Assembly (NCBI GenBank): GCA_947650795.1
Contig: CANSWR010000002.1
Span: forward strand, 1-63,641
Direction: 5' to 3'
Source of the DNA: an uncultured Bacillota bacterium
GTDB taxonomy: Bacteria; Bacillota_I; Bacilli_A; RF39; UBA660
DNA: 63,641 bases
In this document: in pieces, positions 11,116-63,641 of the stretch
How the letters are laid out: every line of letters begins with the position of its first letter
Position numbering within the stretch: position 1 is the first letter of the stretch
The notes under the pieces: generated by a model
Told to the model about the DNA's origin: nothing
The model's database searches: none
The model's input: only the letters and a program-made list of their open reading frames with translations
Program-made: the position numbers and the translations under genes

Positions 11116-11207
11116 AATAAGTCACCTCTTTACGTATGAATTATACCATAATTTTGTACATATTAAAAGAAAAAAATAAAAAACCTAATCTTATGACTAG
11201 ATTTTTA

Positions 11208-11828: not shown

Positions 11829-11949
11829 AACTATTTTACCCTCCATATTCTATATATGTATTATACCCAACTACTACTATTTATAATACAATCTAATATT
11901 ACCATGAATTTATAACAAAGTCAAAAATTAAATGGAGATAATCTAAAAT

Positions 11950-12495: not shown

Positions 12496-12504
12496 AGAAA
12501 AAAG

Positions 12505-13092: not shown

Positions 13093-13161
13093 AAGTACAC
13101 CTCACTTCTATTATATTATACTATACTTATATTCTCTTTACTAGTAGGAACTTTTCTAGTT

Positions 13162-40982: not shown

Positions 40983-41058
40983 TAAAAAACATCCTTTCTA
41001 CACTTATATTGTAGTTAAGGACATTTTTTTATACAACTATAAGAATTTTTTAATATTA

Positions 41059-41745: not shown

Positions 41746-41747
41746 AA

Positions 41748-42539
41748 TTATTCCTCCATCAATAAATAATTTAAAATACAATTAATTCCATTATCTTTTA
41801 ATTTTGCATTAGTAAGTCCTATTACTACATCGGTTCTAATACCTATACCATCAATATACAATTTATCTACTCTTATACATTTTAAAAATCCTGTATTATT
41901 AACACTTTCATAAGGTACTAACATAAAATTACCTGGTGTCAAACACTCTTCTATTTCCTTAGAATTAACAACTATAACTTTATTATGATTATAAGGCTCT
42001 AGTAAAGTATTACCAGTATCCATAAAACCATTTAGTCGAACGACTCTCTTGTCTTTTAAATATACATCTACTTTATAACTTAAAGAATTTCTCAATTTAA
42101 ACTTATTCATTTCTTTAACATAAAAATACAAAATAACAGGAGAAGCTATTAAAATAAATAAATAGTTAACACTTAGTCCCTTATGATAAAATATCATACC
42201 TATATTCCTATAACTAAATTCTACATTCAAATAATACATAAATCCTCCCATAATAATACTTGTAATATAGAAATAAAACATATTAAGAATTACATATTTA
42301 ATATCTTTATATCCAAAAGTAACAAGTACTATTAAAATACTGAGTAATACTTTCATAAGAAATAAAGTTAAAGTAGTAAAAGGCACAAATAACACTAATA
42401 TTGTTAAACTTCCTAGTAATGCTCCTAAAGTAATTTTTTTTAACGAGGCATGTCTTTTCAATATAAGTGATACAGATAACAATAATATAAAATCAAATGC
42501 AAAATTAATAAAAATAATTAGGTCTACATATACTCTCAT
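41748..42539 (-). CDS. spoIIGA: sigma-E processing peptidase SpoIIGA
   Basis: Five N-terminal TM helices plus the DTGN aspartic protease motif (FMDTGNTL). Start chosen at MRVYVDLII. Confidence 0.85.
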   Translation of the reverse strand: MRVYVDLIIFINFAFDFILLLSVSLILKRHASLKKITLGALLGSLTILVLFVPFTTLTLFLMKVLLSILIVLVTFGYKDIKYVILNMFYFYITSIIMGGFMYYLNVEFSYRNIGMIFYHKGLSVNYLFILIASPVILYFYVKEMNKFKLRNSLSYKVDVYLKDKRVVRLNGFMDTGNTLLEPYNHNKVIVVNSKEIEECLTPGNFMLVPYESVNNTGFLKCIRVDKLYIDGIGIRTDVVIGLTNAKLKDNGINCILNYLLMEE

Positions 42540-42597
42540 ATACTCACCCTTTTTTATTATAGAAAAAAAAAGACAAGTTTTTTGTCGTTTCATAGTT

Positions 42598-43413
42598 TTA
42601 TCTAATTAATTTTTTTGCTACTTCTTCTTCAGTAATAATTCCCATTTTCATTTCTTCATAATATTCACGTAAACTGCCTACATTATAACCATTTAACATC
42701 ATTTGACCAGATAATTGATTAGAATCAGAGATAATTGGTTCTTCACTCACATAAAAAGATTTCTTTTCATATTCCCTAACAAAATTAGCTAGAAATCTCA
42801 AATTTATATAACTCCTATTTCCTTTAGGATAAATAAAAGAATAATAAAAATTCACAAGAAATCTAGTATCAAATAAAGTCCTTTCATTTGAATTCTTTAA
42901 TGTTAAAAACATACTATATAATATCTCATATTGTTCTTTGGTAACAACATAATTAGAAATAAAAGTATCATTTAACAATTTACTTAAAAAATCAATGTCT
43001 CTAGCATATTTCAAAAATTTTTTTTCTAGATAGTATTCATTTAAAAGCATATAATCACTTTTATAAAAAATATTAAGTAACCTAAGTTTTCTACTTGCTC
43101 TATAAGCAATAAATAATTTTCCTGTTTGATTTATATTATATAATTCTTTTAAACTATCTTCATCTTCTATTTTTTTAAATTCTTCATCAAAATATCTTAA
43201 TTGATTTGGAGTACTTATTTTATAATATTTCCTATAAAAAAGCGTTCTAATTTTATAATTAAAATCTAAATCGCCTATAAAATAAGGATTAGTTCTGACA
43301 CTATTATAATTATTAAAATCTTTACACACGCTTTCTACTCTAATATTACTAAATAAATGCTTTTTTTCAAGTTTTCCTTCCAAAACTAATGTATATCTAT
43401 TTACTTTTGCCAT
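42598..43413 (-). CDS. hypothetical protein
   Basis: ORF track, 271 aa. No motif recognised. Confidence 0.6.
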   Translation of the reverse strand: MAKVNRYTLVLEGKLEKKHLFSNIRVESVCKDFNNYNSVRTNPYFIGDLDFNYKIRTLFYRKYYKISTPNQLRYFDEEFKKIEDEDSLKELYNINQTGKLFIAYRASRKLRLLNIFYKSDYMLLNEYYLEKKFLKYARDIDFLSKLLNDTFISNYVVTKEQYEILYSMFLTLKNSNERTLFDTRFLVNFYYSFIYPKGNRSYINLRFLANFVREYEKKSFYVSEEPIISDSNQLSGQMMLNGYNVGSLREYYEEMKMGIITEEEVAKKLIR

Positions 43414-43554
43414 AATCTAAACCTCCATAACTATATATATAGAATAGCATAATTTAAGAATTAAAGTCAAAGCATTTTTTATGACTAAGAAAACAAGTAA
43501 TTTTAATCAAATAAAAACTATCATAAAATTGAATTCTATGATAGTTTAATTTAT

Positions 43555-45777
43555 TTATTTTTCTACTGTTCTAGTAACACCTGTAGGTGTCCATCCTTCT
43601 AAAGTCTTATATTCGCTCCATTTATATCTATATGAAGTTACTTTATTAACTGTTGCTTTAGCATCATATGAATTAGAAACAGTGCCTAAATAACATTTAT
43701 GGTCATTCTTTAATTCTCCTCCATTTGGACAAGTATAAACTGTCTTTCCATCTGTCTTAGAAGAATTATAATTATAACTATTATTAATTACACATCTTCC
43801 ACCACTTAAGTTTCCTCCATTTGGACAATACTGTGTACCAGCACTTTGTGAAGCATCATATACTTGAGTTTCAGTAACTACACATGTTGATCCACTTAAA
43901 GTTCCTCCATTCGGACAACTATATTTTCCTGGAGTAGCAGTTGCCTTATAATTATAAGAATCATCATAATAGCATCTTCCACCACTTAAGTTTCCTCCAT
44001 TTGGACAATAATAACTTCCTTGGCCTCTACTTGCAGTATATGTATAAGAATCGTCATAATAACATCTATTACCAGATAATTGACCACCATTTGGACAATA
44101 TTTACTTCCTTGTGACATTGAAGCTGCATATGAACTTGAACTTGTCCCTACACAGACAGAACCACTTCTATTATAACCACTTGGACAACTATAAGAAGCT
44201 GTAGCTGCCACTGTTTGAGTACTTGAAGTTGTAGTACATTTACCATTTACTGGATTTGCACCATTCGAGCAATAATAATTTGGTGTTGCACTAACTGTTT
44301 TACTACTTGTAGAACCTGATTTAACACACATCTTAGTACTATTATTTAGATTTCCACCACTTGGACAACTATATTCATAAACTGAATATCTCCAAGTATA
44401 ATAATAAACTGGATTTGGACATTGTAATTTATTACTACATGTATATCTTGCTTCTTTTCTAACTAAAGCATAACCACTTCCCATATTCGAATTAGTATTA
44501 GTTATAGTTTTACTAACTGCTTTTCTAGTAGCAGCATAACTACTTCCAGGTGTAGTTGTAGTTATAGTACATGTAGAAGTACTTACTGTTCTTCCATCTG
44601 GACAAGTATAATTTCTTATCAACGCATTTGTACTAGATGTACTTCCAGGTTTAACACAAATTGAACCACTCTTACTATAACCACTAGGACATGTATATAC
44701 AACTGTAGCAGCAATTGTTGAAGTTGATGAAGTATAACATCTAGAACCGTTTAAAGTTCCTCCATTTGGACAATAATAACTTCCAGAACTTGTTGAAGCT
44801 ATATAAGAGTTTTCTCTAGTTACATAACATACACCATCTCTTAAAGTTCCTCCATTTGGACAATAATATTCTCCAACACTAAGTGAAGCAACATAAGAAT
44901 TTTCTCTAGTTACATAACATACACCATCTCTTAAAGTTCCTCCATTTGGACAACTATATGTTGTAGCTGCTTGACTAGCTGCATAAGTACTTGTTCCATT
45001 TTTATAACATTTACCATTATTTAAAGTTCCTCCATTTGGACAATAATAACTTCCTGTACTAGTTGAAGGATTATAATATTCCATCTTAGTAACATAACAT
45101 ATACCGTCTTTTAATTCTCCTCCATCTGGACAATACTCAGTCCCTTTAGTAGTAGTCTGTGTTGCTTTATAGCTGTTAGTACTGTATATATAACATTTAC
45201 CATTACTTAATACTCCTCCATCTGGACAACTATAAACAGTATTTTCTCCCGTTACTTCTTGTTTAAACTGATATTCAAGTGATAATTGTTTTTCAGGTTC
45301 TTTAAAACACTCTTCTTTCTCACAATAAGTATAACATCCTAAAGTTTTCTCAACAAAATTCTTCTCACTTGGACAAACTAAGTTAACTTTTAAAGTAAAA
45401 TCATTTTTATTTTTTCTAACTTGTACATAAGAATTTAATGTATCACATTCTTCACCATTTTCATCTACGAACGGTAATATCAAATTCTTATTAATCATTT
45501 CTTGAAGTGTTATCTCTGCTGTATCACCAATATTCTTTGGTAATCTCTCATCTGTATAATAACTCTCTGCTGCATCTTGCATGTACTTAATATTTTCTCT
45601 AAACACATTACTATAAAAAGGTTTCATATTAGGTACTTTTGGAAATAACCATAATAATAACAATAAGAATATTACCAAAAATACAGCTTTAATTATTACA
45701 TCTTTCCAATCAAATCTTCTATTTCTAGGTTCTCTCTCATCCCATTTAAAACCAGGATTTTTTTCACTACTATACAT
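43555..45777 (-). CDS. membrane-anchored protein with about 16 tandem Cys-pair repeats (Y-x-C-P-x-G-G-x-L-x-x-G-x-C-Y)
   Basis: An N-terminal TM helix (VIIKAVFLVIFLLLLLWLF), then repeats such as YYCPNGGTLNNGKCY, YSCPNGGTLRDGVCY and YSCPSGYNRSGSVCV. Confidence 0.75.
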   Translation of the reverse strand: MYSSEKNPGFKWDEREPRNRRFDWKDVIIKAVFLVIFLLLLLWLFPKVPNMKPFYSNVFRENIKYMQDAAESYYTDERLPKNIGDTAEITLQEMINKNLILPFVDENGEECDTLNSYVQVRKNKNDFTLKVNLVCPSEKNFVEKTLGCYTYCEKEECFKEPEKQLSLEYQFKQEVTGENTVYSCPDGGVLSNGKCYIYSTNSYKATQTTTKGTEYCPDGGELKDGICYVTKMEYYNPSTSTGSYYCPNGGTLNNGKCYKNGTSTYAASQAATTYSCPNGGTLRDGVCYVTRENSYVASLSVGEYYCPNGGTLRDGVCYVTRENSYIASTSSGSYYCPNGGTLNGSRCYTSSTSTIAATVVYTCPSGYSKSGSICVKPGSTSSTNALIRNYTCPDGRTVSTSTCTITTTTPGSSYAATRKAVSKTITNTNSNMGSGYALVRKEARYTCSNKLQCPNPVYYYTWRYSVYEYSCPSGGNLNNSTKMCVKSGSTSSKTVSATPNYYCSNGANPVNGKCTTTSSTQTVAATASYSCPSGYNRSGSVCVGTSSSSYAASMSQGSKYCPNGGQLSGNRCYYDDSYTYTASRGQGSYYCPNGGNLSGGRCYYDDSYNYKATATPGKYSCPNGGTLSGSTCVVTETQVYDASQSAGTQYCPNGGNLSGGRCVINNSYNYNSSKTDGKTVYTCPNGGELKNDHKCYLGTVSNSYDAKATVNKVTSYRYKWSEYKTLEGWTPTGVTRTVEK
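44810..44953 (-). repeat. near-perfect 90-nt tandem duplication inside the Cys-repeat gene
   Basis: The 54 nt at 44810-44863 are identical to 44900-44953. Both encode RDGVCYVTRENSY...YYCPNGGTL. Confidence 0.85.
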
Positions 45778-45796
45778 AACTTCTCCCCCTTACCTA

Positions 45797-47170
45797 CTAT
45801 TTTAATTTTCTACCAAAATCATCTTCATACATAGCTTTGCTATTATAATTATCAGAAACCATTTGAACTAAATAACTTCCCATTATATTAAGGTCTTCTA
45901 CTTCATCTGTCTTTTCACCATTTTCACTAATCATATTAACAGTACAAACAGCATAATTAAATTCATTAGTAATATCATAAAATGATCTTTCTTCACAACT
46001 AATAGGATCATATATCATTAAAGCTTTTGCTTCACCACATAAAGTAGCACCATTTAAGAAAGCTATACTAGTAAGATATTTCATACCACCTGTTTCTAAT
46101 GAATTCAAATCAATTGAAGAATAACCTTGTAATAATGCTGAACTTAAGAATAATTCTGCATATTGTTTTTGTAAAGCACTTATATCTTCTTTACCTGCAC
46201 CTTGTATCATACCTGTTCTTAATTTTGATAATTGATGAAGTAACATTTGTCCTTTAGTACCATCTACACAGAATATCCCTAAATCTAATGTTCCAGAAGT
46301 TTCAGTTCTTTCAGTAGTAACTCCATTTACTCTATCAGTTGCATTTCCTTCTTCTCTAAACATCAAATTATTAATTGTATTAATTGCATATGTAGCACTA
46401 TCAACACTAACATTTTCACAATTACCTGCACCAATCTGCCTTATTTGTTCTGCAATTTCATCTATCGTAACATATTGCTGAGGCAAATAGACATCATAAT
46501 ACTTTGTCTTAATTTCTTCTGCTCTAGCATAAACCTGCTCTTCATTATAAATATCAGTTAAAACCGTATCAAATAATCCCTTTTTCTCTTGAGGATTATC
46601 ATAAGACCCAGGAGTTTCTACTGCATTATTATTTGCAGAATTAGTAGTACCTTTATCTTCAAAAACACCATCTAAATTTGGAAAGCCAAAAGGATTATTT
46701 GTTAAAGAAGTTTCATCATCTTCTACACTAGATTGTCCATTACTTCCTAAAGTGTCATCTGTTGACTGTCCACTTTGAGTATCTTTAGAAGGATCCATTG
46801 TACCTTGAAGATCTTGATCATCATCATTATTTAATACTTTATCATTATTATTTGAATATAAATACGCTCCATAAGCAAGTCCCCCTGCTGCCACTATAGA
46901 TACAAGAGCAATTAAAGCTTTTTTCTTACCACTTCCAACAAGCCCTAAACTGCCTTGTGCTCTAGCTCTAGCTTGTTCTTGTAAAATATCTAGTTGATCA
47001 TTTAGTTTTCTAATAACCTCATTATATCTATCATATTTTCTTTTATCAGCTTCATTTAAATCATCCCTGCTCTGAGCTATAGGATCATAAGATTCAGCCA
47101 TAATTCTAAGCTTTTCTTGATATTTTAAAATCTTTTTTTCTAATCTTTCTATTTTTTTATTAATATTCAT
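45797..47170 (-). CDS. hypothetical protein (coiled-coil, single TM, large extracytoplasmic domain)
   Basis: ORF track, 457 aa. TM segment KKALIALVSIVAAGGLAYGAYLY. Confidence 0.65.
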   Translation of the reverse strand: MNINKKIERLEKKILKYQEKLRIMAESYDPIAQSRDDLNEADKRKYDRYNEVIRKLNDQLDILQEQARARAQGSLGLVGSGKKKALIALVSIVAAGGLAYGAYLYSNNNDKVLNNDDDQDLQGTMDPSKDTQSGQSTDDTLGSNGQSSVEDDETSLTNNPFGFPNLDGVFEDKGTTNSANNNAVETPGSYDNPQEKKGLFDTVLTDIYNEEQVYARAEEIKTKYYDVYLPQQYVTIDEIAEQIRQIGAGNCENVSVDSATYAINTINNLMFREEGNATDRVNGVTTERTETSGTLDLGIFCVDGTKGQMLLHQLSKLRTGMIQGAGKEDISALQKQYAELFLSSALLQGYSSIDLNSLETGGMKYLTSIAFLNGATLCGEAKALMIYDPISCEERSFYDITNEFNYAVCTVNMISENGEKTDEVEDLNIMGSYLVQMVSDNYNSKAMYEDDFGRKLK

Positions 47171-47360
47171 ACAAATACCCCCTTTGTGAATATATGACTA
47201 AGATTATACTCCAAAATACTTAAAAAGTCAACCAATTTAGTATATTATTGGTGTTTATTTTGTACCATTTCAAATACCGTTACAAACAGAAACAAATTAT
47301 CATTTACAATAACAAAATCTCTTCTTACACCAATATAAAAGTGAAAAAAGAGATTAAAAA

Positions 47361-48185
47361 CTAATTAAGTAACTCTGAAATACTGACAATCTTCATTTGT
47401 TTACCAGTAATATAATTAATAATTGGACTTATTTCATTCTTTGTCTGCTCACTCTCCTTATACACATAAAAATTTCCCTTATTTAAAGTTTTCTTAGTAT
47501 TAAGAAAAATATCATGAGTATAAACATACTCTGGTTTTATAGTATTAATTTTAGACTTTTTACACATATCCAAATTATCCTTAACACCTAAATTAACGCA
47601 AAACTTTCTCTCACTATTTTGAAATTCCTTCATAACACTTAAATACTTTTTAAAATCATTTTCTTCACTACCACCATAAACTATATCAAAGCCTTCATTA
47701 TATACATCCTTTAAATACTCTTTATGAGTTTCTGCTACACTACCTGTAACTATTAAATTTAATTTTACACCTTTATATTTACTAACATCTACAATATCCT
47801 TAATATAAGAACCATCTATCACATTAATAAATAAACTAACACCTAAAGTAGCTTCATTAGCCTTTATTATATAGCTATCCTTGGTAGTATCTAAATTAAC
47901 ATCACACTTGATTTCCTCAAATACCATTAAATCCTCATCAAATCCATAACCTTGCATATTAGAATAACTAGCACTGGTATCAATAACTCGACCATTAACC
48001 CCAAGCACGACTCCACTTGGAGTTTTATATCCCTCTTTACATGGCACATAAGATGTTTCTTTATACTCTTCTATACTCACCATAATAGGATCTTTACTAT
48101 TCATAATCTTAGTAACCTTCTCAGTATAATAAAAACTAAAACAAGTAATTACAAAAAGCCCTATATATTCAAAGTATTTTTTCAT
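47361..48185 (-). CDS. hypothetical membrane-anchored protein, possibly a degenerate NodB (polysaccharide deacetylase)-like fold
   Basis: Start chosen at MKKYFEY after AGGTGA. The layout ..LGVSLFINVIDG...VKLNLIVTGSVAETHKEYLKDVYNEGFDIVYGG loosely mirrors the NodB motif order but lacks the catalytic residues. Confidence 0.5.
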   Translation of the reverse strand: MKKYFEYIGLFVITCFSFYYTEKVTKIMNSKDPIMVSIEEYKETSYVPCKEGYKTPSGVVLGVNGRVIDTSASYSNMQGYGFDEDLMVFEEIKCDVNLDTTKDSYIIKANEATLGVSLFINVIDGSYIKDIVDVSKYKGVKLNLIVTGSVAETHKEYLKDVYNEGFDIVYGGSEENDFKKYLSVMKEFQNSERKFCVNLGVKDNLDMCKKSKINTIKPEYVYTHDIFLNTKKTLNKGNFYVYKESEQTKNEISPIINYITGKQMKIVSISELLN

Positions 48186-48233
48186 ATCTTCACCTATCAA
48201 ATATATATGATTGTAATTAATGTTTTAGTATAA

Positions 48234-57114: not shown

Positions 57115-58062
57115 TTATTTAAGAGCTTCGATTAACTCTTCTTTCTTCATAGTAGAGTAACCTTTTACACCTTTATCTTTAGCTAAGACTTTTAAATCTG
57201 CTAATTTCATATCTTCTAATGATTCTGTTTCTTCTGGTTCACTAGAAACTTCGCTAACTTCAGTTTGATTTTCATCACTATTTACTTCTTTTTCTATTAC
57301 TTGAACCTCTTCACGAATCTTACCATCTTTACCTTTTTTAGGTTTTACAAACTCTTCTTCAGTCACATAATCTTCAAGCGGTAATCCATTTCCTTCACAA
57401 ACAGCATTAGCAAGAACTCCTAAAACCACTTTAACAGCACGTACTGCATCATCATTTCCTGGTATTACATAATCAACATCATCAGGATCGCTATTAGTAT
57501 CAACTATACCAAAAACAGGAATTCCTAATCTTCTTGCTTCTCTAATAGCATTTATTTCAATACGAGGGTCAGTTATAATAAGTGCTTGTGGTAATCTTGT
57601 CATTTCTCTTATACCACATAATATCTTATTTAACTTATCATATTCTTTTTGTAACTTTGCTACTTCTTTTTTAGGTAATAACTCAAACTTACCATCACTT
57701 TTCATTTTTTCGATTTGAGCTAAACGATTAATTCTTTCTCTAATAGTTTTAAAATTAGTAAGAATTCCTCCAAGCCAACGTTCAGTTACATAATAACCTC
57801 CACATCTTGTTGCCTCTTCAATACTAGCTTCTTGTGCTTGTTTTTTAGTACCAACAAACAATGCTTTACCGCCATCTTTACATGCTTCACGTAAAACAAC
57901 ATATGCTTCCTCTAATTTCTCAACTGTTTTCTCCAAATCAATAATATAAATATCATCTCTAGAAGTATAGATGTATTCTTTCATTTTAGGATTCCATCTT
58001 TTTGTTTGATGTCCAAAATGTACACCAGCTTCTAATAAATTTCCTTTTGACACTACTGCCAT
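57115..58062 (-). CDS. rpsB: 30S ribosomal protein S2 with an acidic linker and a C-terminal Rho_N/SAP-like module
   Basis: The canonical S2 core ([19 protein letters not shown]) is followed by about 70 extra residues ending [28 protein letters not shown]. Confidence 0.95.
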
Positions 58063-58269
58063 AATTTCACTCTTCCTTTCGTTATCCCTTCCTTTTGTTT
58101 CTAAACCTTTACACCTACATAATTGTAAGCACTAGTAAAAGAAATCCACAAAAGTGCTTATTTTCTAAAGCCGAATATATTTTAACACAATATTATATGT
58201 AAAGTAAATAAAAATATTAAAAACTAAAACATGAATATAAATTAAAAAACTAATAAAAATTATTTCTTA

Positions 58270-58425
58270 TCATAAAATCAAACATGTAACAAAATAATTA
58301 GAGAAATTACTGAGACGAACGACTCCATTATTGTTGACGTCTACGTTACTCAAGTAGCCAGGATAACTAGAACCCCACGCAATGAACACGCGCGCCCAAG
58401 TGCTATCCCAAGCCCACGGACTCAT
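58270..58425 (-). CDS. array mini-ORF 1
   Basis: MSPWAWDSTWARVFIAWGSSYPGYLSNVDVNNNGVVRLSNFSNYFVTCLIL (own codon-by-codon translation). This is the leftmost unit; the conserved 3' flank is truncated after AATTTCTCT. Confidence 0.55.
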   Translation of the reverse strand: MSPWAWDSTWARVFIAWGSSYPGYLSNVDVNNNGVVRLSNFSNYFVTCLIL

Positions 58426-58574
58426 TTAAGATTTTCTACAATATCATCCTAATTTATTTAACATAATTTATAAAAAAGAAACATTCAAATATTTACTAAA
58501 CCTTAATTATAAATAATATTAATTTTTAGTCATCATGACACGGATGACATTTGTTTCTCTAACAATTTTTTCTA

Positions 58575-58748
58575 CTATAACATAATATTATGAAAAAACT
58601 TTATCAAAGAGAAATTACTGAGACGAACGACAGTTGAACCACTGTTAACGGATAAACTACCCAAGCAGCCAGGAGCAGTAGATCCGTACAAAAACAAGAC
58701 AATCGCAGTGCCAGAACTAGAGCCCCACCTGAACTGTGACGGACTCAT
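58575..58748 (-). CDS. array mini-ORF 2
   Basis: MSPSQFRWGSSSGTAIVLFLYGSTAPGCLGSLSVNSGSTVVRLSNFSLIKFFHNIML. Confidence 0.55.
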   Translation of the reverse strand: MSPSQFRWGSSSGTAIVLFLYGSTAPGCLGSLSVNSGSTVVRLSNFSLIKFFHNIML

Positions 58749-58911
58749 CAATTATTTTTTATAATATTATCCTAAATTGTTAATAACAAGAAATATTCAA
58801 TTTTTACTAATTCTTAATCATAAATGATAATAAATATCTAGTATTACAATAAGGATAATATTTGTTTCTCTAATATTTTTTACTATAATTATTATCATGA
58901 AAAATTATTAA

Positions 58912-59040
58912 CTAAGAGAAATTTGGACGAACTACTCCATTACCATGAGCGACATTTGCATTTCCAGAACGGTCAGGATAAGTAGAACCGTATAAAGTAA
59001 ATACATGTACATTAATATCTATTAATTCAAACGGACTCAT
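58912..59040 (-). CDS. array mini-ORF 3
   Basis: MSPFELIDINVHVFTLYGSTYPDRSGNANVAHGNGVVRPNFS. Confidence 0.55.
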   Translation of the reverse strand: MSPFELIDINVHVFTLYGSTYPDRSGNANVAHGNGVVRPNFS

Positions 59041-59231
59041 TTAAAAATTTTTATAATATCATCCTAATTTATTTAACATAATTAATAAAAAAGAAACATT
59101 CAAATATTTACTAAATCTTAATTATAAATTATATAATTTTTAGTTATCATAACACGGATGACATTTGTTTCTCTTAAAACTTTTTCTACTATAACATAAT
59201 ATTATGAAAAAACTTTATCAAAGAGAAATTA

Positions 59232-59342
59232 CTAACGAACGACTCCAATATCGCCTAAATTCGCATTATTCAAACGGCCAGGATTTGTGCAACTAACATC
59301 GAACACGTACGCTCTAGTGCCATTCCAATAGTACGGACTCAT
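59232..59342 (-). CDS. array mini-ORF 4
   Basis: MSPYYWNGTRAYVFDVSCTNPGRLNNANLGDIGVVR, with the stop directly after GVVR. Confidence 0.55.
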   Translation of the reverse strand: MSPYYWNGTRAYVFDVSCTNPGRLNNANLGDIGVVR

Positions 59343-59501
59343 ATTCAATTTTACTATAATATCATCCTAATATATAAATATCATTTATTAATGAAGAATA
59401 TATAGTTATTTACTAACTCTTAATTATAAATAATATAACCTTTAGTCCTTATAATCTGGACAATATTTGTTTCTCTTAAATCTTTTCTACTATAAACCAA
59501 A

Positions 59502-59648
59502 TTATGAAAAAACACTATCAAAGAGAAATTTCTGACGAACAACTCCACTAACATCTTGAACACCAGCACCAGCCAAGTGGCCAGAATAAGTAGAACCACG
59601 AACCTGATACACGTCCGCCCTTGTACTATTCCAACCATACGGACTCAT
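59502..59648 (-). CDS. array mini-ORF 5
   Basis: MSPYGWNSTRADVYQVRGSTYSGHLAGAGVQDVSGVVRQKFLFDSVFS. The ORF-track entry 59420..59638 is an off-frame reading of the same unit. Confidence 0.55.
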   Translation of the reverse strand: MSPYGWNSTRADVYQVRGSTYSGHLAGAGVQDVSGVVRQKFLFDSVFS

Positions 59649-59760
59649 AATAACTTTACACAATATTATCCTCAACTAAAATTATTTTGAATGATAACTA
59701 TTTAGATATATAACAAGAATAATATTTGTTTCTCTTAAATTTTTTCTACTATAATTTACA

Positions 59761-59910
59761 TTATGAAAAAACTTTATTAAAGAGAAATTTTTGACGAACA
59801 ACTCCAGCAGTACTATAATCAACATTTGCATACCATAGTTGTCCTGATTTACTAGAGCCATGCACATTGAACATGTGCGCATATCCATCAAGCCAACCCC
59901 ACGGACTCAT
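59761..59910 (-). CDS. array mini-ORF 6
   Basis: MSPWGWLDGYAHMFNVHGSSKSGQLWYANVDYSTAGVVRQKFLFNKVFS. The ORF-track entry 59682..59891 is off-frame. Confidence 0.55.
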   Translation of the reverse strand: MSPWGWLDGYAHMFNVHGSSKSGQLWYANVDYSTAGVVRQKFLFNKVFS

Positions 59911-60000
59911 GCTTTTAAATCTTTTAAATACATTATTTATAATAATTTCAAATAAAAAATTACCAATATTATAATCTAAATCATTTATCTATAGATTACA

Positions 60001-60198
60001 TTACAAATAATGTTTGTTTCTCTTAAAACTTTTTCTACTATAACTCAAATTATGAAAAAGTAGTTTTAAAGAGAAATTACTAAGACGAACGACTCCATCA
60101 GTATTATAGATGTGAGTACCAGTTAAATGGCCAGGATTACTAGAACCTTTCACAAGAAACCCAGCTGAAAAAACGTTATTCCATGTCCACGGACTCAT
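60001..60198 (-). CDS. array mini-ORF 7
   Basis: ORF track: MSPWTWNNVFSAGFLVKGSSNPGHLTGTHIYNTDGVVRLSNFSLKLLFHNLSYSRKSFKRNKHYL. The tail after GVVR is read-through of the conserved flank. Confidence 0.55.
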   Translation of the reverse strand: MSPWTWNNVFSAGFLVKGSSNPGHLTGTHIYNTDGVVRLSNFSLKLLFHNLSYSRKSFKRNKHYL

Positions 60199-60289
60199 TA
60201 TTTTAATATTACTTACTGATTATCAAAATATTATTTTCATAAATTTAATAATAAATATTAACAATGTTTTTTAATCTATAATTTTTTAT

Positions 60290-60430
60290 GAATAATATTT
60301 TGTTTCTCTAATAATTTTTATAGATAAATTATTAGAAGAAATACTCTAATACTAAAAGTATAAATATCATTTAAGTAACTAGAACAATTTAAACAAAGCA
60401 ATATAACACACGCCTCAATGTCCACTGAAA
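60290..60430 (-). pseudogene. decayed array unit (7b)
   Basis: It keeps AATATTTTGTTTCTCTAATAATTTTTATAG and remnants of the core (..AACTAGAACAATTTAAACAAAGCAATATAACACACGCC..). It has lost the ORF, both anchors and the GC richness. Confidence 0.6.
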
Positions 60431-60572
60431 CAGAATCAATTAATTAATAGTATCTATTTTTACATTTTCCTATTAAAGTACTAACATAAAAATATGATTA
60501 TATCATTTTAGCATAAAAACTTTTAAATTAACATAGACAATATTTGTTTCTCTAATATTTTTTCTACTATAA

Positions 60573-60725
60573 TTATAAATTATGAAAAAAACTATATTTA
60601 AAGAGAAATTTTGGACGAACGACTCCATTAGTGCTGTAGACGTACGCGTAGCTCAACTGGCCAGGACTATTAGAACTCACACAGAACACGAGTGCCCCTA
60701 TGCCATCACGAATATACGGACTCAT
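60573..60725 (-). CDS. array mini-ORF 8
   Basis: MSPYIRDGIGALVFCVSSNSPGQLSYAYVYSTNGVVRPKFLFKYSFFHNL. Confidence 0.55.
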   Translation of the reverse strand: MSPYIRDGIGALVFCVSSNSPGQLSYAYVYSTNGVVRPKFLFKYSFFHNL

Positions 60726-60983
60726 AAAGTGCAATTAACTTATTTTCAATATTATCCACATTAATTATAATATAAATTAATTAAAACTTCTATTTCTTAA
60801 CAACATAATCACTCTTTAAGTTTCAAAAAAAATATATATTCTTAAAATTCTACTATTTCAGAATAATCAAAAAATAATATAAAATATTCCTCCAAAAGTA
60901 CTAATTTTATATTAAAAAACTTTTTAGTCTAAAGACAAAGAATAATATTTGTTTCTCTAATATCTTTTCTACTATAATATAAA

Positions 60984-61136
60984 TTATGAGAAGATGCTTT
61001 TTAAAGAGAAATTACTAGGACGAACAACTCCACGAGTATCATGAACACCAGCGTGACTCAAGAGACCAGGAAGTTCAAACCCCCACACATTGAACACGCC
61101 AGTCCATACACCATGCCAAATATACGGACTCGGCAA
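60984..61136 (-). CDS. array mini-ORF 9 (ATG replaced; possible TTG start one codon upstream)
   Basis: TAA-TTG-CCG-AGT-CCG... gives (M)PSPYIWHGVWTGVFNVWGFELPGLLSHAGVHDTRGVVRPSNFSLKSIFS. Confidence 0.45.
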   Translation of the reverse strand: MPSPYIWHGVWTGVFNVWGFELPGLLSHAGVHDTRGVVRPSNFSLKSIFS

Positions 61137-61162
61137 TTAATTAATAATATTATAATTTTTAA

Positions 61163-61375
61163 CTAAAAAAAGTTTCGGATAATATTTGTTTCTCTTATAC
61201 TTTTTCTACCATAATCTAAATTATGAAAAATTATTTTTAAAGAGAAATTACTAAGACGAACAACTCCACTAGTGACATGAACTCCTGAGTAGTACAATCG
61301 GCCAGGATTACCAGAACCAATCACAGTGAACACAAACACATAGCCATTAATCCAACAATGCGGACTCATACACAC
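61163..61375 (-). CDS. array mini-ORF 10
   Basis: ORF track: MCMSPHCWINGYVFVFTVIGSGNPGRLYYSGVHVTSGVVRLSNFSLKIIFHNLDYGRKSIRETNIIRNFF. The family-typical ATG (MSP) is at 61369. Confidence 0.55.
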   Translation of the reverse strand: MCMSPHCWINGYVFVFTVIGSGNPGRLYYSGVHVTSGVVRLSNFSLKIIFHNLDYGRKSIRETNIIRNFF

Positions 61376-61480
61376 TTTTATTAAATATTATTACAAAAAT
61401 AATGTCTAAAAATATCTTAATATAATATTTTTTTAATATACTATTTTAAATAATATTTGTTTCTCTTAAAACTTTTTCTA

Positions 61481-61654
61481 CTATAACATAATATTATGAA
61501 AAAACTTTATCAAAGAGAAATTACTAAGACGAACGACTCCATTCTCATTAATGTACTTCCAATTCAAGCGGCCAGCACTACTGGAAGTGCCTACCCAAAA
61601 CACAGCAGTACTTACATAACTATCACCATACCAGTAAAAGTAATACGGACTCAT
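61481..61654 (-). CDS. array mini-ORF 11
   Basis: MSPYYFYWYGDSYVSTAVFWVGTSSSAGRLNWKYINENGVVRLSNFSLIKFFHNIML. The track ORF starts 9 codons further upstream, at 61681. Confidence 0.55.
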   Translation of the reverse strand: MSPYYFYWYGDSYVSTAVFWVGTSSSAGRLNWKYINENGVVRLSNFSLIKFFHNIML

Positions 61655-61784
61655 ATCCAAATTCTTTCTAATATCATTCAATTTAATTTTTAACTGATAA
61701 AATTATCATTAATTAAATTACCTAGTTTTTTAAAACTATGAATAATATTTGTTTCTCTTAAAACTTTTTCTACTATAATTTACA

Positions 61785-61925
61785 TTATGAAAAAACTTTA
61801 TTAAAGAGAAATTTCGGACGAACGACTCCATCTGAATCACTAACATATGCGAAGGCCAAACGACCAGCATCTCCAGAACTCACAATGAACACAGCCGCCA
61901 AAGTAGCAAACCGAGACGGACTCAT
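61785..61925 (-). CDS. array mini-ORF 12
   Basis: MSPSRFATLAAVFIVSSGDAGRLAFAYVSDSDGVVRPKFLFNKVFS. Confidence 0.55.
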   Translation of the reverse strand: MSPSRFATLAAVFIVSSGDAGRLAFAYVSDSDGVVRPKFLFNKVFS

Positions 61926-62002
61926 TATTTTTGATTATCAAAATATAATATTTATAAATTTACTAATATGTATTAATAATGTATTTTCCATCTATAATAT
62001 TT

Positions 62003-62115
62003 AATAAATAATATTTTATTATTGAAATCACTAAGAAATATTCTAATATTAAAAGTTTAAATATCATAGTACAATTTGAACATAGCACATAGAACATACG
62101 CCTTGCAATAGCAAT
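62003..62115 (-). pseudogene. decayed array unit (12b), homologous to unit 7b
   Basis: ..ACAATTTGAACATAGCACATAGAACATACGCCTTGCAATAG.. aligns with unit 7b at roughly four of five positions by eye. Confidence 0.6.
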
Positions 62116-62165
62116 ATACAACGAAAAATTTTTTAATTAATAATACTTATTTTTACATTTTCCCA

Positions 62166-62468
62166 TTAAAATACTAATATAAAAATAAGCTTATCTAATT
62201 TTAGCATAAAAACTTTTAACTTAAAATAAAAATATATCAATTTCTTTAAAGTACAAATCATCTTAAACAATATTTGTTTCTCTAATATTTTTTCTACTAT
62301 AAAATTAATTATGAAAAAAACTATATTTAAAGAGAAATTTCTGAGACGAACAACTCCATTAGTGCCATAGTCAACATTTACATTCCACAACTGGCCAGGA
62401 CTACCAGAACCATGCACATCTAACATAAATACACGATTGTTAATATTATTCCAACAATACGGACTCAT
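62166..62468 (-). CDS. array mini-ORF 13 (long read-through tail)
   Basis: ORF track: MSPYCWNNINNRVFMLDVHGSGSPGQLWNVNVDYGTNGVVRLRNFSL... Only the first 41 codons belong to the family. The rest is flank and spacer that happens to stay open. Confidence 0.5.
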   Translation of the reverse strand: MSPYCWNNINNRVFMLDVHGSGSPGQLWNVNVDYGTNGVVRLRNFSLNIVFFIINFIVEKILEKQILFKMICTLKKLIYFYFKLKVFMLKLDKLIFILVF

Positions 62469-62623
62469 TTAAAATTTTACTAAAATATCATCTTAATTTA
62501 ATTAACATCATTTATTAATAAAGAATATTCAATTATTTACTAACTCTCAATTATAAATAATATAATTTTAGCCATTATAGCATGGACAATATTTATTTCT
62601 CTTAAACTTTTTCTACTATAAAA

Positions 62624-62776
62624 TTAATTATGAAAAAACTTTATTAAAGAGAAATTTCCAGAACGAACGACTCCATCAATGTCATGGACGCTCGTATAAC
62701 TCAATTGGCCGGGACCATATGAATCCCACACAATGAACACGCGTGCAAAGCCACTCCAAAACTCATGCGGACTCAT
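62624..62776 (-). CDS. array mini-ORF 14
   Basis: MSPHEFWSGFARVFIVWDSYGPGQLSYTSVHDIDGVVRSGNFSLIKFFHN. Confidence 0.55.
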   Translation of the reverse strand: MSPHEFWSGFARVFIVWDSYGPGQLSYTSVHDIDGVVRSGNFSLIKFFHN

Positions 62777-62914
62777 TTATATTTTTTACAATATCATCTT
62801 AATTCAATTATTTACTTACTCTTAATTATAAATAATATAATTTTAGTCATTATGACATAGACAATATTTGTTTCTCTATAAATTTTTCTACTATAAAATT
62901 AATTATGAAAAACT

Positions 62915-63046
62915 TTATAAAGAGAAATTTCTAGGACGAACGACTCCGCGATCATCTTGAACGCCTGCATAACCCAACAGGCCAGGACCACCAGAACTCA
63001 CAATGAACACGAGCGCGTTACCACTCCAAAACTCATGCGGACTCAT
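62915..63046 (-). CDS. array mini-ORF 15
   Basis: MSPHEFWSGNALVFIVSSGGPGLLGYAGVQDDRGVVRPRNFSL. Confidence 0.55.
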   Translation of the reverse strand: MSPHEFWSGNALVFIVSSGGPGLLGYAGVQDDRGVVRPRNFSL

Positions 63047-63232
63047 TTATATTTTTTACAATATCATCTTAATTTAATTAATATCATTTATCAATAAAGA
63101 ATATTCAATTATTTACTAACTCTCAATTATAAATAATATAATTTTTAGTCATTATGACATAGACAATATTTGTTTCTCTATAAATTTTTTCTACTATAAA
63201 ATTAATTATGAAAAAACTTTATTAAAGAGAAA

Positions 63233-63358
63233 TTACTGACGAACTACTCCATTACCATTGCTGACACTCCCGCCCCACAACTGGCCAGGATAATCAGAAC
63301 CAAATACATGGAACAGAATCGCACCGTCATCAATAATACCAGAACGATACGGACTCAA
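63233..63358 (-). CDS. array mini-ORF 16 (TTG in place of ATG)
   Basis: (M)SPYRSGIIDDGAILFHVFGSDYPGQLWGGSVSNGNGVVRQ. This is the rightmost unit, i.e. the first one on the minus strand. Confidence 0.45.
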   Translation of the reverse strand: MSPYRSGIIDDGAILFHVFGSDYPGQLWGGSVSNGNGVVRQ

Positions 63359-63513
63359 ATTTTTCAATACTATCCAATTTTATTTTATCAAAAATATATT
63401 CAAATTACAAATTAAAGTAGCATATACAGTTACGTACACAAATAAAATATGAAAAGTTAAAATTTTCAAATAATAATTATATTAAAAACAATAAAAGCGA
63501 ACAAAAATTCATC

Positions 63514-63552
63514 AACAGAAAAACCGACGACAAGCATAGCTTGCCGTCGGTA
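63514..63552 (-). terminator. strong rho-independent terminator upstream (minus-strand sense) of the array
   Basis: ACCGACGGCAAGC / GCTTGTCGTCGGT (13-bp stem, 4-nt loop), followed on the minus strand by TTTTTCTGTTG. Confidence 0.8.
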
Positions 63553-63641
63553 TGGTTAGCCCTCGAAATGGTTTTCTCGGTCTGTGTACCCCCTTATTTA
63601 CCTTGCTTCTTATCCATTCATCAACGTATATGGACTTGCTC
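63553..63641 (-). other. GC-rich, probably structured RNA segment running off the right edge (unassigned)
   Basis: Minus strand: GAGCAAGTCCATATACGTTGATGAATGGATAAGAAGCAAGGTAAATAAGGGGGTACACAGACCGAGAAAACCATTTCGAGGGCTAACCAT. GC is well above local coding DNA. There is a TCCAT...ATGGA hairpin, and it ends in the terminator. Confidence 0.25.

Follow-up and report, generated by a model that had tools for sequence, protein, structure and literature searches.

Organization of the array

What is encoded by the tandem series of short, divergent open frames that lies beside rpsB at the end of this 63,641-nt stretch of DNA (the window)? An earlier note interpreted them as independent mini-ORFs of an undescribed kind. 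We propose that, rather than small genes, the 16 "mini-ORFs" probably form a tandem set of alternative forms of the variable-region (VR) binding tip of the neighboring lectin-like surface protein, each packaged in the manner of a template repeat (TR) from a diversity-generating retroelement (DGR).

The 16 intact units are arranged head-to-tail on the minus strand, each consisting of ATGAGTCCG and GGAGTNGTTCGT around 108–126 nt. Across the 63.6-kb window the minus strand carries 16 instances of GAGTCCG, every one within 58423–63356, and the plus strand carries none; GGAGTNGTTCGT occurs 15 times in the window and is confined to the array, with unit 15 carrying ACTGTCGTTCGT instead. A whole-unit profile scores 16 matches and no more, every one of them on the minus strand (E-values 1e-35 to 1e-58), and the earlier count of intact units holds. 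The reported periodicity also holds, with a measured unit-to-unit spacing of 236–323 bp plus intervals of 408, 527 and 543 bp. The two decayed units that had been claimed are both traceable, although only weakly detectable. The features are as follows, all on the minus strand.

58267–63385, minus: whole array, 16 intact modules and decayed remnants, flanked by a target-type gene and rpsB
63157–63385, minus: module 1; core 63239–63358 (120 nt), TTG at anchor; spacer-like element 63167–63244
62855–63080, minus: module 2; core 62936–63046 (111 nt); spacer-like element 62865–62941
62580–62810, minus: module 3; core 62663–62776 (114 nt); spacer-like element 62590–62668
62262–62503, minus: module 4; core 62346–62468 (123 nt); spacer-like element 62271–62351
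62069–62106, minus: weak decayed-core remnant within the 543 bp separating modules 4 and 5 (nhmmer E=1 and direct reading)
61737–61961, minus: module 5; core 61818–61925 (108 nt); spacer-like element 61746–61823
61447–61688, minus: module 6; core 61529–61654 (126 nt); spacer-like element 61454–61534
61174–61396, minus: module 7; core 61256–61369 (114 nt); spacer-like element 61183–61261
60938–61164, minus: module 8; core 61020–61133 (114 nt), anchor CCG not ATG; spacer-like element 60946–61025
60531–60766, minus: module 9; core 60615–60725 (111 nt); spacer-like element 60541–60620
60289–60338, minus: decayed spacer-like remnant (…TTAGAGAAACAAAATATTATTCA) within the 527 bp separating modules 9 and 10 (nhmmer E=0.01)
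60002–60246, minus: module 10; core 60085–60198 (114 nt); spacer-like element 60011–60090
59713–59942, minus: module 11; core 59794–59910 (117 nt); spacer-like element 59723–59799
59455–59679, minus: module 12; core 59535–59648 (114 nt); spacer-like element 59464–59540
59152–59376, minus: module 13; core 59235–59342 (108 nt); spacer-like element 59162–59240
58850–59075, minus: module 14; core 58927–59040 (114 nt); spacer-like element 58859–58932
58538–58782, minus: module 15; core 58623–58748 (126 nt), 3' anchor ACTGTCGTTCGT; spacer-like element 58548–58628
58267–58460, minus: module 16, nearest rpsB; core 58315–58425 (111 nt); spacer-like element truncated or degenerate

Coding constraint on the cores

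Re-translation agrees with the earlier account in most respects. The anchor-to-anchor length is a multiple of three in 16/16 units (36–42 codons), and frame 0 contains no stop in any of them; the other two frames of the same strand are interrupted in all 16, and those of the opposite strand in 9, 14 and 16 units. The first Val codon of GVVR varies only synonymously, as claimed (GTC in nine units, GTT in five, GTA in two). Two details require correction. A TTG anchor, reported for two units, is present in module 1 alone, as unit 8 has CCG with a TTG one codon upstream, and the cores are not "almost unalignable", since a common scaffold, SP.xW…A.VF.V.GS..PG.L…V…GVVR, runs through them. At its conserved V, F, G, L and A residues the third codon position varies, and scaffold columns give a pN/pS of 0.49 with pS 0.44; synonymous variation in the anchors is zero. 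The open frames, triplet indels, third-position variation and pN/pS together support protein-level constraint on the minus-strand frame.

Relationship to DUF6273 proteins

An exhaustive search with a profile located the cassette peptides inside 200–900-aa proteins, about 30 aa from the C-terminus (…WWTMSP…VF.V.GS..PG.L…GVVRPVISLKS…). These proteins have DUF6273 matches, mostly below Pfam's cut-off, with the cassette region at the C-terminal end of the profile, and an AF2 model of one of them, P0022 (pLDDT 80), resembles phage DUF6273 proteins (TM 0.63 normalised to target). DGRs are known to target the C-lectin-like DUF6273 domain (PMC10743442; bioRxiv 10.1101/2024.10.15.618418), in which the VR lies at the C-terminus (bioRxiv 10.1101/2024.10.15.618418). 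The family architecture comprises a SipW-type signal, a TasA-like N-terminal domain and the DUF6273/C-lectin-like domain containing the VR, and in full-length genes of close relatives a GC-rich VR is bounded by the anchors seen here. The cores match the VR near the C-terminus of these large secreted, C-type-lectin-like proteins.

A gene of this family lies next to the array. The array does not simply give way to plain spacer: the final 32 nt before the window edge belong to a full-length family gene and form its 3' end.

63610–63641, minus: 3' end of the target-type gene, last 9 codons (…ASPYTLMNG, TAA), by direct reading; the gene leaves the window
63545–63593, minus: conserved post-stop element, GGGGGTACACAGACC then GAAAACCATTTCGAGGGCT..ACCGACG, by sequence comparison
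63523–63551, minus: intrinsic-terminator-like hairpin, 13 pairs (8 G-C) then TTTTT; predicted end of the upstream gene before the array

Minus-strand bases 1–22 of the window are 100% identical to bases 245–266 of L118, which encode …GASPYTLIL*, and the C-terminal tails of P0022, P0048 and P0125 resemble the end of the window-edge gene. In L037 and L119, too, the stop codon is followed by GGGTACACA, and the post-stop element aligns with the post-stop region of the canonical DGR target in L096 with a local score of 27 (shuffle mean 13.8, sd 2.1; 1/1000 shuffles reached it).

Flanks of the modules

In related gut bacteria (loci L096, L090 and L065) a canonical DGR targets the homologous gene, with an AAC-rich TR ~225 nt past the target stop codon and VR/TR mismatches falling at TR adenines in 20/21, 18/23 and 24/24 cases respectively. 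MutS_I-like, bAvd-like and RVT_1 genes follow downstream in L096 and L090; the short L065 contig ends earlier.

The module boundaries are nucleotide-invariant and common to the VR of full-length genes, being ATGAGTCCG on one side and, on the other, GTTCGT, in most cases with C or CC next. Flanking the core, homology to the target covers 9 nt at the 5' end and about 14 nt at the 3' end, where it switches to TR-type sequence; this is the IMH/IMH*-like TR/VR arrangement, unlike what a recombination donor would need. Beyond it lies an AT-rich element of ~80 nt homologous to the post-TR spacer of the relatives' canonical DGRs. Its blocks AATTTCTCT … TCATAAC … GTTATAGTAGA … AGAGAAACAA constitute the relatives' TR-specific 3' flank and are present in 15/16 window modules, the copy in module 16 being degenerate. 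Across 26 modules from two arrays these blocks are >=90% conserved, whereas the cores are about 40–50% identical. With core and AT-rich 3' flank homologous to the TR and spacer of the relatives' canonical DGRs, the description of the units as an undescribed kind of mini-gene is not supported.

These flanks bear directly on the earlier proposal that each unit expresses a 36–65-aa peptide with its own function. In its favor are the ATG at 14/16 anchors, the open frame under protein-level constraint, the prediction of such peptides by gene callers in metagenomes, and an upstream -10-like box, GGAT(A/G)ATATT, 11–25 nt from the core. However, the anchor ATG is the internal Met of the WWTMSP motif conserved in the 200–900-aa proteins, its distance from the -10 box is variable, and the cores have no Shine-Dalgarno sequence, whereas rpsB and tsf of the same window have clear ones. 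The frame past GVVR is not preserved among units, reaching a stop after 0 to ~60 codons (mostly <30), the peptide would comprise a few beta-strands from the interior of a modelled ~250-aa lectin-like domain, and the flanks are TR-type non-coding RNA sequence. We therefore consider free-standing mini-ORFs very improbable; the protein-level constraint in the earlier interpretation is supported, and the independence of the mini-ORFs is not. As an open frame is found together with DGR-type homology and without signs of translation, the constraint is best explained by the cores donating coding sequence to another gene rather than by translation of their own.

Slightly less probable still, and with hardly any weight in our assessment, is that the cores are themselves non-coding VRs under current DGR hypermutation, or structured ncRNAs with paired conserved ends around a variable loop. 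Their composition is VR-like, and RNAalifold pairs AUGAGUCCG with UGGAGUNGU, unit 2 folding with z = -2.5. Yet the cores are identical between samples, so hypermutation is not ongoing, and the sequence 3' of them is TR-type (IMH*-like) rather than VR-type. The minimum-energy structure of unit 13 (z = -0.8) lacks the anchor pairing, which is also disrupted in L118's full-length gene; an ncRNA would not be expected to show triplet periodicity, and Rfam returned no family match.

Codon footprint and stability of the cassettes

At the variable columns of the cores 84% of codons are NNY (52% in background genes) and third-position A falls to 7% (37%). K+E+Q+M together account for 5% (21%), and Arg is encoded by CGN in 21/26 cases, compared with AGR in 321/359 background codons. 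Scaffold columns likewise use A-poor codons (GTG, GCG, TTG, GGC, TTC). The cores are adenine-poor and GC-rich within a 26% GC genome; the decayed copies, an example of copies free of constraint, have shifted towards AT. We read this codon usage from the sequence as a DGR footprint of the VR-like kind.

Another array, with at least 14 units, lies partly in a contig of the same metagenome sample as L002; only the sample shared by that part and the near-identical flanks suggest that both arrays may belong to one genome. In 11/12 examined cores from the second array and L009 the frame is kept, with triplet-only indels and no stop. Cassettes are 99–100% identical across samples, which differ only in unit losses or deletions, and thus behave as a stable archive. 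Some are mosaic (win_12 and P0008 share their 3' half; L008_7, L008_8 and win_8 share a tail), and unequal crossing-over among units is seen in other samples; recombination therefore acts on array DNA.

The same stability might indicate a fossil, that is, a decaying tandem duplication of a DGR TR region without present function. The window has no RT, some units here and in other samples are decayed or deleted, cassette sequences do not change between samples, and in most relatives the VRs remain depleted in adenine and no DGR lies within 10 kb. On the other hand, synonymous changes at non-adenine positions (GGC/GGT, TTC/TTT, TTG/CTA, GTG/GTT; scaffold pS 0.44) distinguish the cassettes, which have therefore diverged for long by ordinary mutation. 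Despite this divergence, the window cores and all but one of the others examined remain open with triplet indels while the five other frames are filled with stops, and the A-poor, GC-rich composition has been maintained where decayed copies drifted. We regard a fossil as improbable.

A proposed bank of donor cassettes

We are confident that the modules are TR-type cassettes homologous to a DGR-target VR. Each core is, on present comparisons, one complete alternative VR of the secreted DUF6273/C-type-lectin-like protein encoded just upstream of the array. In the model that we favor, every module would be transcribed, a DGR-type reverse transcriptase encoded elsewhere would copy the core using the spacer element, and the cDNA would replace the VR of one or more target genes between the two anchors. 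VR alleles diversified beforehand, length variants among them, would thereby be exchanged whole, and any extra adenine mutagenesis would be limited at most. For transfer through RNA and RT the arguments seem to us evenly balanced, and we give the same even chance to the combined model of an untranslated donor-cassette bank, derived from a DGR TR, that rewrites the VR by this route. We found no tandem bank of DGR template-like cassettes described in the literature.

Several results weigh on the proposed route. Searches by tblastn with the L096 proteins found no RT, Avd or MutS_I-like gene in the 63.6-kb window, which also has no YxDD ORF; Pfam found none of these genes in the nearest 25 kb, and none adjoins the second array or L009. 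The call of a promoter in each module amounts to a -10-like motif within very AT-rich DNA, and the predicted spacer hairpin is nearly invariant and so offers no covariation support. Against the bank, the cores are not TR-like in content, with 21% A and 2.4 AAY codons per core versus 37% and 16 in the L096 TR. No VR/cassette pair was found: the L118 VR, the only one recovered from a close relative, is <=71% identical to any of the 28 cassettes compared, with no adenine bias among mismatches.

An alternative that dispenses with reverse transcription is vls/pilS-like gene conversion from silent cassettes, in which homologous or microhomology-driven recombination rewrites the VR of the adjacent gene and the TR-type flanks are the relic of a lost DGR. 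An expression-type gene lies directly upstream of the array in the same orientation, short invariant boundary repeats are common to cassettes and full-length genes, and both the mosaic cassettes with their crossing-over and a window without RT would be as expected. However, the flanking homology to the target is very short, and the best-conserved 80-nt element is of TR type and not homologous to the sequence downstream of the target's VR, so it would be useless for recombination with the target. Gene conversion also leaves unexplained why this element and the -10-like box are conserved while the cores diverge. We think this unlikely, but it deserves serious consideration.

Comparison with known systems

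The proposed donor-cassette bank resembles the TR and spacer RNA of a canonical DGR (Bordetella phage BPP-1 type; L096/L090/L065): the core shares homology with the VR of a target having the C-lectin fold (DUF6273), is found a few hundred nt past the target stop, loses target homology at a GC-rich 3' boundary, has adenine-poor scaffold codons and is followed by the non-coding blocks AATTTCTCT / TCATAAY / TTATAGTAGA / AGAGAAACAA. A canonical DGR, however, has one AAY-rich TR (16 AAY codons in L096), a spacer of about 150 nt and adjacent avd/RT genes, whereas here there are 16 copies, and at least 14 at the second locus, that diverge in sequence and length (105–126 nt in both arrays, 108–126 nt in the window), are adenine-poor and VR-like with about 2 AAY codons, have the element shortened to about 80 nt, and lack neighboring avd/RT genes. 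DGRs with two TRs or several targets have been reported, such as that of Stenotrophomonas sp. SKA14 (PMC6642488). These similarly have more than one template or VR per retroelement, but their TRs are few, AAC-rich and dispersed in an RT-containing cassette, and no tandem pre-diversified bank is described there.

Neisseria pilE/pilS shares with the array tandem silent copies that are missing the gene's 5' portion, have conserved repeats between them and serve as donors of variable segments. Its recombination is RecA-dependent, requires extended homology on the flanks and starts from a G4/sRNA initiator at pilE, in contrast to the 9 nt and about 14 nt of target homology here and an inter-cassette repeat that is TR-spacer-like. 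In Borrelia burgdorferi, the vlsE expression gene lies beside ~15 contiguous promoterless partial copies of its variable segment, bounded by short direct repeats and with frames kept open, in a GC-rich locus of an AT-rich genome. All of these properties have counterparts in the array, but the vls cassettes abut without non-coding spacer, whereas each array cassette has its ~80-nt conserved RNA-type element and -10-like box, and the vls target is unrelated in fold and evolutionary origin to the C-lectin fold and DGR origin of the array.

Organization of the array

The motif GAGTCCG occurs 16 times between rpsB and the right edge of the window, in every case on the minus strand, and on neither strand elsewhere in the window. 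The motif GGAGTNGTTCGT is likewise confined to the array, with 15 copies, and the one remaining unit carries ACTGTCGTTCGT instead. The features used below are as follows:

57115-58062, minus strand: rpsB
between rpsB and the right edge, minus strand: 16 modules, with the 5' anchor ATGAGTCCG and the 3' anchor GGAGTNGTTCGT (ACTGTCGTTCGT in one)
within the modules, minus strand: named conserved blocks TTATAGTAGA and AGAGAAAC, with a GGATRATATT box upstream
63610-63641, minus strand: 3' end of a target-type gene, encoding a large secreted DUF6273 protein

On the minus strand the order is therefore target-type gene, terminator hairpin, 16 modules and rpsB. The anchor-to-anchor stretches (n = 16; 108-126 nt) all have lengths that are multiples of three and are all open in the frame that starts at the anchor, in which no unit carries a stop, whereas each of the other five frames is interrupted in 9-16 of the 16. 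An earlier note had described the array accurately in all but details, and its statements that every unit is open and that length differences are multiples of three are borne out by this count. Units are spaced 236-323 bp apart apart from three longer gaps of 408, 527 and 543 bp, and a search with a nucleotide profile of the unit returns 16 copies and no more in the window, with weak remnants inside the long gaps. The cores have a GC content of about 44% in a genome of 25-30%. The array goes undetected by Tandem Repeats Finder because its units are too divergent, and Rfam 15 gives no match at gathering score over the window and none at E <=1 in 58100-63641. Integron attC sites were considered and rejected on direct reading, because RYYYAAC/GTTRRRY core sites are not matched by the flanks and the contents of the cassettes are mutually homologous.

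In the RNAalifold prediction for the 16 units, 8 of 9 positions of the 5' anchor AUGAGUCCG can pair with the 3' anchor UGGAGUNGU, and the variable position forms a G-C or G-U pair in 14 of the units. GTC is otherwise the rarest valine codon in the genome. This complementarity may be due to chance or may represent a real closing stem of a template RNA; the stem is predicted by RNAalifold, single-sequence folds are inconsistent, and it is broken in the full-length gene of L118, a contig from a close relative. The pairs of the spacer hairpin are almost invariant and so uninformative as to covariation. By eye, a second small hairpin lies 3' of AGAGAAACAAATATT in units 1-3, 8 and 12-15 (for example at 63145-63160, 62570-62585 and 59430-59450); it is formed by differing sequences (GTCATAATGAC, CCATGCTATAATGG, GTCCAGATTATAAGGAC, GTCTTTAGAC and GTCATGATGAC) and is always followed by TAAAAATTATATTATTTATAATT. 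It seems to be kept through these different sequences, which would be covariation.

Relationship of the cores to large secreted proteins

The core peptides share the scaffold SP.xW…A.VF.V.GS..PG.L…V…GVVR. A word-indexed search with these peptides retrieves only short peptides from short metagenome contigs, single cassette peptides have no Pfam match, and a PDB sequence search with the peptide profile gives only a chance match. An exhaustive profile search of 1.8 billion representatives recovers this segment in proteins of 200-900 aa, where it stands about 30 residues before the C-terminus, in the context …WWTMSP(variable)GVVRPVISLKS..G.GT..PY…. The ATG of the units is therefore an internal methionine of a conserved motif, and …ISLK may survive as a vestige in the AATTTCTCT after the cores.

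The large proteins begin, in our own reading of the sequence, with a SipW-type signal, and the model of their N-terminal domain resembles a TasA fibre. Their C-terminal domain matches DUF6273, in most cases below the Pfam cut-off, and the cassette region aligns to the end of the profile; their fold model matches phage DUF6273 proteins. DUF6273 is a C-type-lectin-like domain and a documented target of diversity-generating retroelements (DGRs) (PMC10743442; bioRxiv 10.1101/2024.10.15.618418), with the variable region (VR) at the C-terminus of the domain (bioRxiv 10.1101/2024.10.15.618418). The peptide alignment, the fold model and the gene at 63610-63641 agree in giving the array a target of this kind, with its VR at the C-terminal end of the domain.

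The units were presented in the earlier note as mini-ORFs. Features of small proteins or RiPP precursors are lacking in them: they have no Shine-Dalgarno sequence, 2 of 16 lack a start codon or have one other than ATG, and neither the frame nor the stop is conserved after GVVR. As isolated lectin strands are in addition unlikely to fold alone, we infer that the modules are untranslated donors. Direct translation of the units would account for the open frames, and we consider it very improbable on these grounds. A type I toxin or leaderless bacteriocin was rejected because the peptides are neither hydrophobic nor cationic.

About 100 separately listed two-domain family proteins of 813/814 aa from human gut metagenomes (P0129-P0224) are 96-100% identical to one another, both VR-like segments included. 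Their species carries a fixed, duplicated version of the domain that is not hypervariable.

A 3' flank shared with DGR template repeats

Three of 79 metagenome loci with relatives of these proteins (L096, L065 and L090) have a second copy of the VR, the starts lying about 430 nt apart. The mismatches fall at adenines of the second copy in 20 of 21 cases in L096, 24 of 24 in L065 and 18 of 23 in L090, which is the signature of a template repeat (TR) and its VR. Downstream of the TR, L096 and L090 have ORFs for MutS_I-like and bAvd-like proteins and for an RVT_1 reverse transcriptase (RT); the short L065 contig ends earlier. These three are the only ones of the 79 loci with a TR within 10 kb, and none of the 79 genes, which belong to other gut bacteria, nor the relatives' contigs L127 and L128, has an array beside it. 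The 57 distinct VRs of the relatives (loci L039-L117) form GC-rich, adenine-depleted islands, with 55% GC versus 36%. Either remote DGRs act in trans or many VRs of the family are frozen leftovers.

The TR of the relatives is followed by …CGTCCGGTCAATTTCTCTAGGG…GGTCATAACAAATGTTATAGTAGAC…AGAGAAACAAG, and the core in 15 of the 16 modules of the window by CGTC..AGTAATTTCTCTTTAA…TTTTCATAAT…TTATAGTAGAAAAA…AGAGAAACAAAT, which is degenerate in module 16. The flank blocks of the modules are shared with the TR flanks of L096 and L090, and none is found in the sequence downstream of the VR in target genes. Across 26 modules of two arrays they are conserved to at least 90%, as against an identity of about 40-50% between the cores. 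Because the blocks are of TR type, absent from the VR flank and conserved over and above the cores, the modules of the window are TR-plus-spacer units and not pseudogene copies of the 3' end of a target gene; each core has, like a TR, its own non-coding spacer with a TR-type 3' boundary.

The genes that accompany the TR in the relatives were sought near the arrays. No tblastn match to the RT, bAvd-like or MutS_I-like proteins of L096 was obtained in the window or in contigs L001-L010, the window has no RT-like YxDD ORF of at least 150 aa, and there is no Pfam RT match in the nearest 25 kb. RT, Avd and MutS_I-like genes are likewise lacking beside the other arrays.

Codon footprint and constraint

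In their content the cores are VR-like. Adenine makes up 21% of a core and AAY codons number 2.4 per core, compared with 37% and 16 in the TR of L096 and 16% and 3 in its VR. The AAY-rich template of a DGR is therefore not what the window cores contain. Where the TR of L096 has Asn (AAC), the cassettes are hypervariable at codon positions 1 and 2, 84% of codons are NNY versus 52% in background genes, and third-position A falls to 7% versus 37%. Arginine is encoded there by CGN in 21 of 26 cases (AGR accounts for 321 of 359 in the genome) and leucine by CTN in 11 of 13, and K, E, Q and M together make up 5% versus 21%. Given this NNY bias, the depletion of A, the CGN arginines and the scarcity of K, E, Q and M, the cassettes carry the footprint of adenine mutagenesis of AAY codons. 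The VRs of 57 full-length relatives show the same depletion of adenine, with 4% third-position A versus 47% upstream in the same genes.

Scaffold columns use GTG, GCG, TTG, GGC and TTC codons, all rare in the genome, and their entropy is 1.0-1.4 bits at the third position and 0-0.8 at positions 1 and 2. Scaffold pN/pS is 0.49 (pS is 0 in the anchors), and coding capacity has been under selection. The cassettes have therefore also undergone later, ordinary divergence at non-adenine synonymous sites, with frame and scaffold residues kept throughout. That the array is a non-functional fossil is improbable in view of this long-term preservation. Still less credible, in our estimation, is a reading of the modules as recipients or as non-coding RNA, which we place last of all.

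The target-type gene adjoining the array

The first 32 nt of the minus strand of the window read …ASPYTLMNG and a stop, and bases 1-22 are 100% identical to bases 245-266 of L118, encoding the end of …WWWTMSP…NGAVRPVVSLKSSVLVTGGNGTGASPYTLIL and the stop. The full-length genes of four close relatives (L037, L118, L119 and L127) have the same nucleotide anchors around a GC-rich VR, namely ATGAGTCC(G/A) and GTTCGTCC, mostly with GTC in front. Part of the region after the stop resembles the corresponding region of the canonical DGR locus L096, a similarity reached by 1 of 1000 shuffles. In three lineages a conserved motif, GGGTACACA or, in the window, GGGGGTACACAG, stands 15-20 nt past the stop of the target-type gene and before the terminator (window 63579-63593, minus strand; L037, about 2100-2112; L119, about 275-290); it could belong to a homing-enhancing or regulatory element.

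A profile search specific for the tail of the gene, made to locate the VR of the expression site, finds only P0035, encoded on L118, which is a paralogue or comes from a close relative. Its VR is at best 71% identical to a known cassette, with no adenine bias in the mismatches, and no full-length protein with a cassette sequence occurs among the assembled proteins; assemblies break at the repeats. The L118 contig starts just upstream of the VR because its first 55 nt or so (1-55) are a Nextera adapter (…TCGTCGGCAGCG.TCAGATGTGTATAAGAGACAG), an assembly artefact in the ENA contig.

The array adjoins the 3' end of an expression-type gene, yet each cassette has its own -10-like box; the VR of that gene lies outside the window, whose source contig is longer by only 331 nt. 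Recombination-based gene conversion from silent cassettes is a reading that we regard as unlikely, although better placed than a fossil. L119/L037 and L120/L038 were considered as alleles with the same tails and different VRs, but they are paralogues or stand in different contexts and do not constitute clean evidence of switching. L120 (1-270) is a copy of a family gene that has an in-frame TGA and whose VR is AT-rich and decayed. Its identity to L038 is about 96% between a point some 10 nt beyond the 3' anchor GTCGTTCGT and the contig end, and before the anchor the two are essentially unalignable (93 of 179 aligned columns identical), so that the 3' end of the VR looks like an exchange boundary. 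L128 is from a relative in the JGI sample that also yielded L037; at 10001-14535 it has a tandem pair of family genes (476 and 873 aa), with neither TR nor array nearby.

Distribution and variation between samples

Contigs L121 and L008 carry a second array, of at least 14 modules, upstream of prs. L008 is from the same sample as L002, which is 100% identical to the window, and L121 is from another sample and overlaps L008 at 100%. The start of a further array adjoins a divergently transcribed gene for a C39-like peptidase (L009). Cassettes are mosaic both between and within arrays. Between samples their sequences are 99-100% identical and the differences are structural:

L006: modules 14-15 lost, with a 34-nt deletion in module 13
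L005: a different neighbour of module 16
L001: a 28-bp deletion

Because of this identity between samples, the cassettes are a stable archive and are not currently hypermutating. A scan of GTDB representatives for ATGAGTCCG N90-120 GGAGTNGTTCGT gave 26 single matches in unrelated high-GC genomes, about 30 being expected by chance on our own rough estimate; the species of the window, or its arrays, is therefore absent from that collection. A scan of viral contigs with the spacer motif gave 5 chance matches inside coding sequence.

A model for the use of the modules

How the cassettes would reach the target gene is a question on which we lean, at roughly even confidence, towards reverse transcription. 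The best-kept parts of the modules, the -10-like box and the TR-proximal spacer, are what a DGR RNA needs, and homology to the target stops at a short GC-rich boundary, as it does in IMH/IMH* pairs, the boundary types of VR/TR pairs. The 9-nt 5' anchor also fits the short homology that, according to Guo et al. 2008, is reportedly enough for 5' cDNA integration in BPP-1. Against this route count the lack of an RT, Avd or MutS_I-like gene in the window or by the arrays, cores that are not AAY-rich, and the absence of a demonstrable cassette/VR pair.

More tentatively, and at somewhat less than even confidence, we propose a multi-template DGR, in which at least 30 separately transcribed TR-plus-spacer modules in two or more arrays would form a heritable archive of diversified VR alleles, any of which a trans-encoded DGR RT would install into genes for C-lectin surface proteins. 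Whole binding-site alleles, loop-length variants included, would be switched, as opposed to the randomising of one template. Mutagenic homing into TR copies, or transfer from VR to TR, may have produced the archive, which could then be a memory of variants that were successful earlier.

Taken strictly as a DGR, the locus falls short in two of the tested features, having no RT in the window and cores that are not AAY-rich. These lower the claim that it is a DGR and leave unlowered the claim that it is built from DGR parts, and we class it as DGR-derived and working like a silent-cassette system. DGRs so far described have one (rarely two) adenine-rich templates, from which a fixed set of codons is randomised. 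Our literature search turned up two-TR DGRs and TRs that vary between strains, and no tandem bank of diversified TR modules; the vls, pilS and tprK cassette systems work by recombination, and we know of no retroelement link for them. The locus unites the two ideas, with 16-30 TR-type transcription units each holding a different resolved VR allele of differing length, and a multi-template DGR, if true, would combine hypermutation by a retroelement with antigenic variation from cassettes. Use of the modules would mean that allele switching, besides hypermutation, can be driven by DGR-type machinery or what remains of it, that TRs can evolve into a stored repertoire, and that an uncultured, spore-forming Firmicute of the gut possesses a programmable adhesin or receptor-binding tip. 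With many short templates and a compact spacer of about 80 nt, the modules are natural material for DGR-based engineering. They also call for caution: in metagenomes, arrays of short, open and hypervariable 'ORFs' that have been called as genes can be templates that are not translated.

The host

The window carries spoIIGA and two sigma-factor genes, by their order likely sigE and sigG, at 40209-42593 on the minus strand, so that the host is a very low-GC (about 26%) spore-forming Firmicute; a relative of the target protein is annotated only as from a 'Bacilli bacterium' MAG. Minus-strand positions 42598-48200, flanked by spoIIGA and an M4 metallopeptidase gene, hold four consecutive large ORFs (271, 740, 457 and 279 aa) with no Pfam match at E <=1e-5. 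The S2 protein encoded by rpsB has a C-terminal extension of about 70 aa ending in a Rho_N/SAP-like domain (PF07498 is on record for the product), which is unusual for rpsB.
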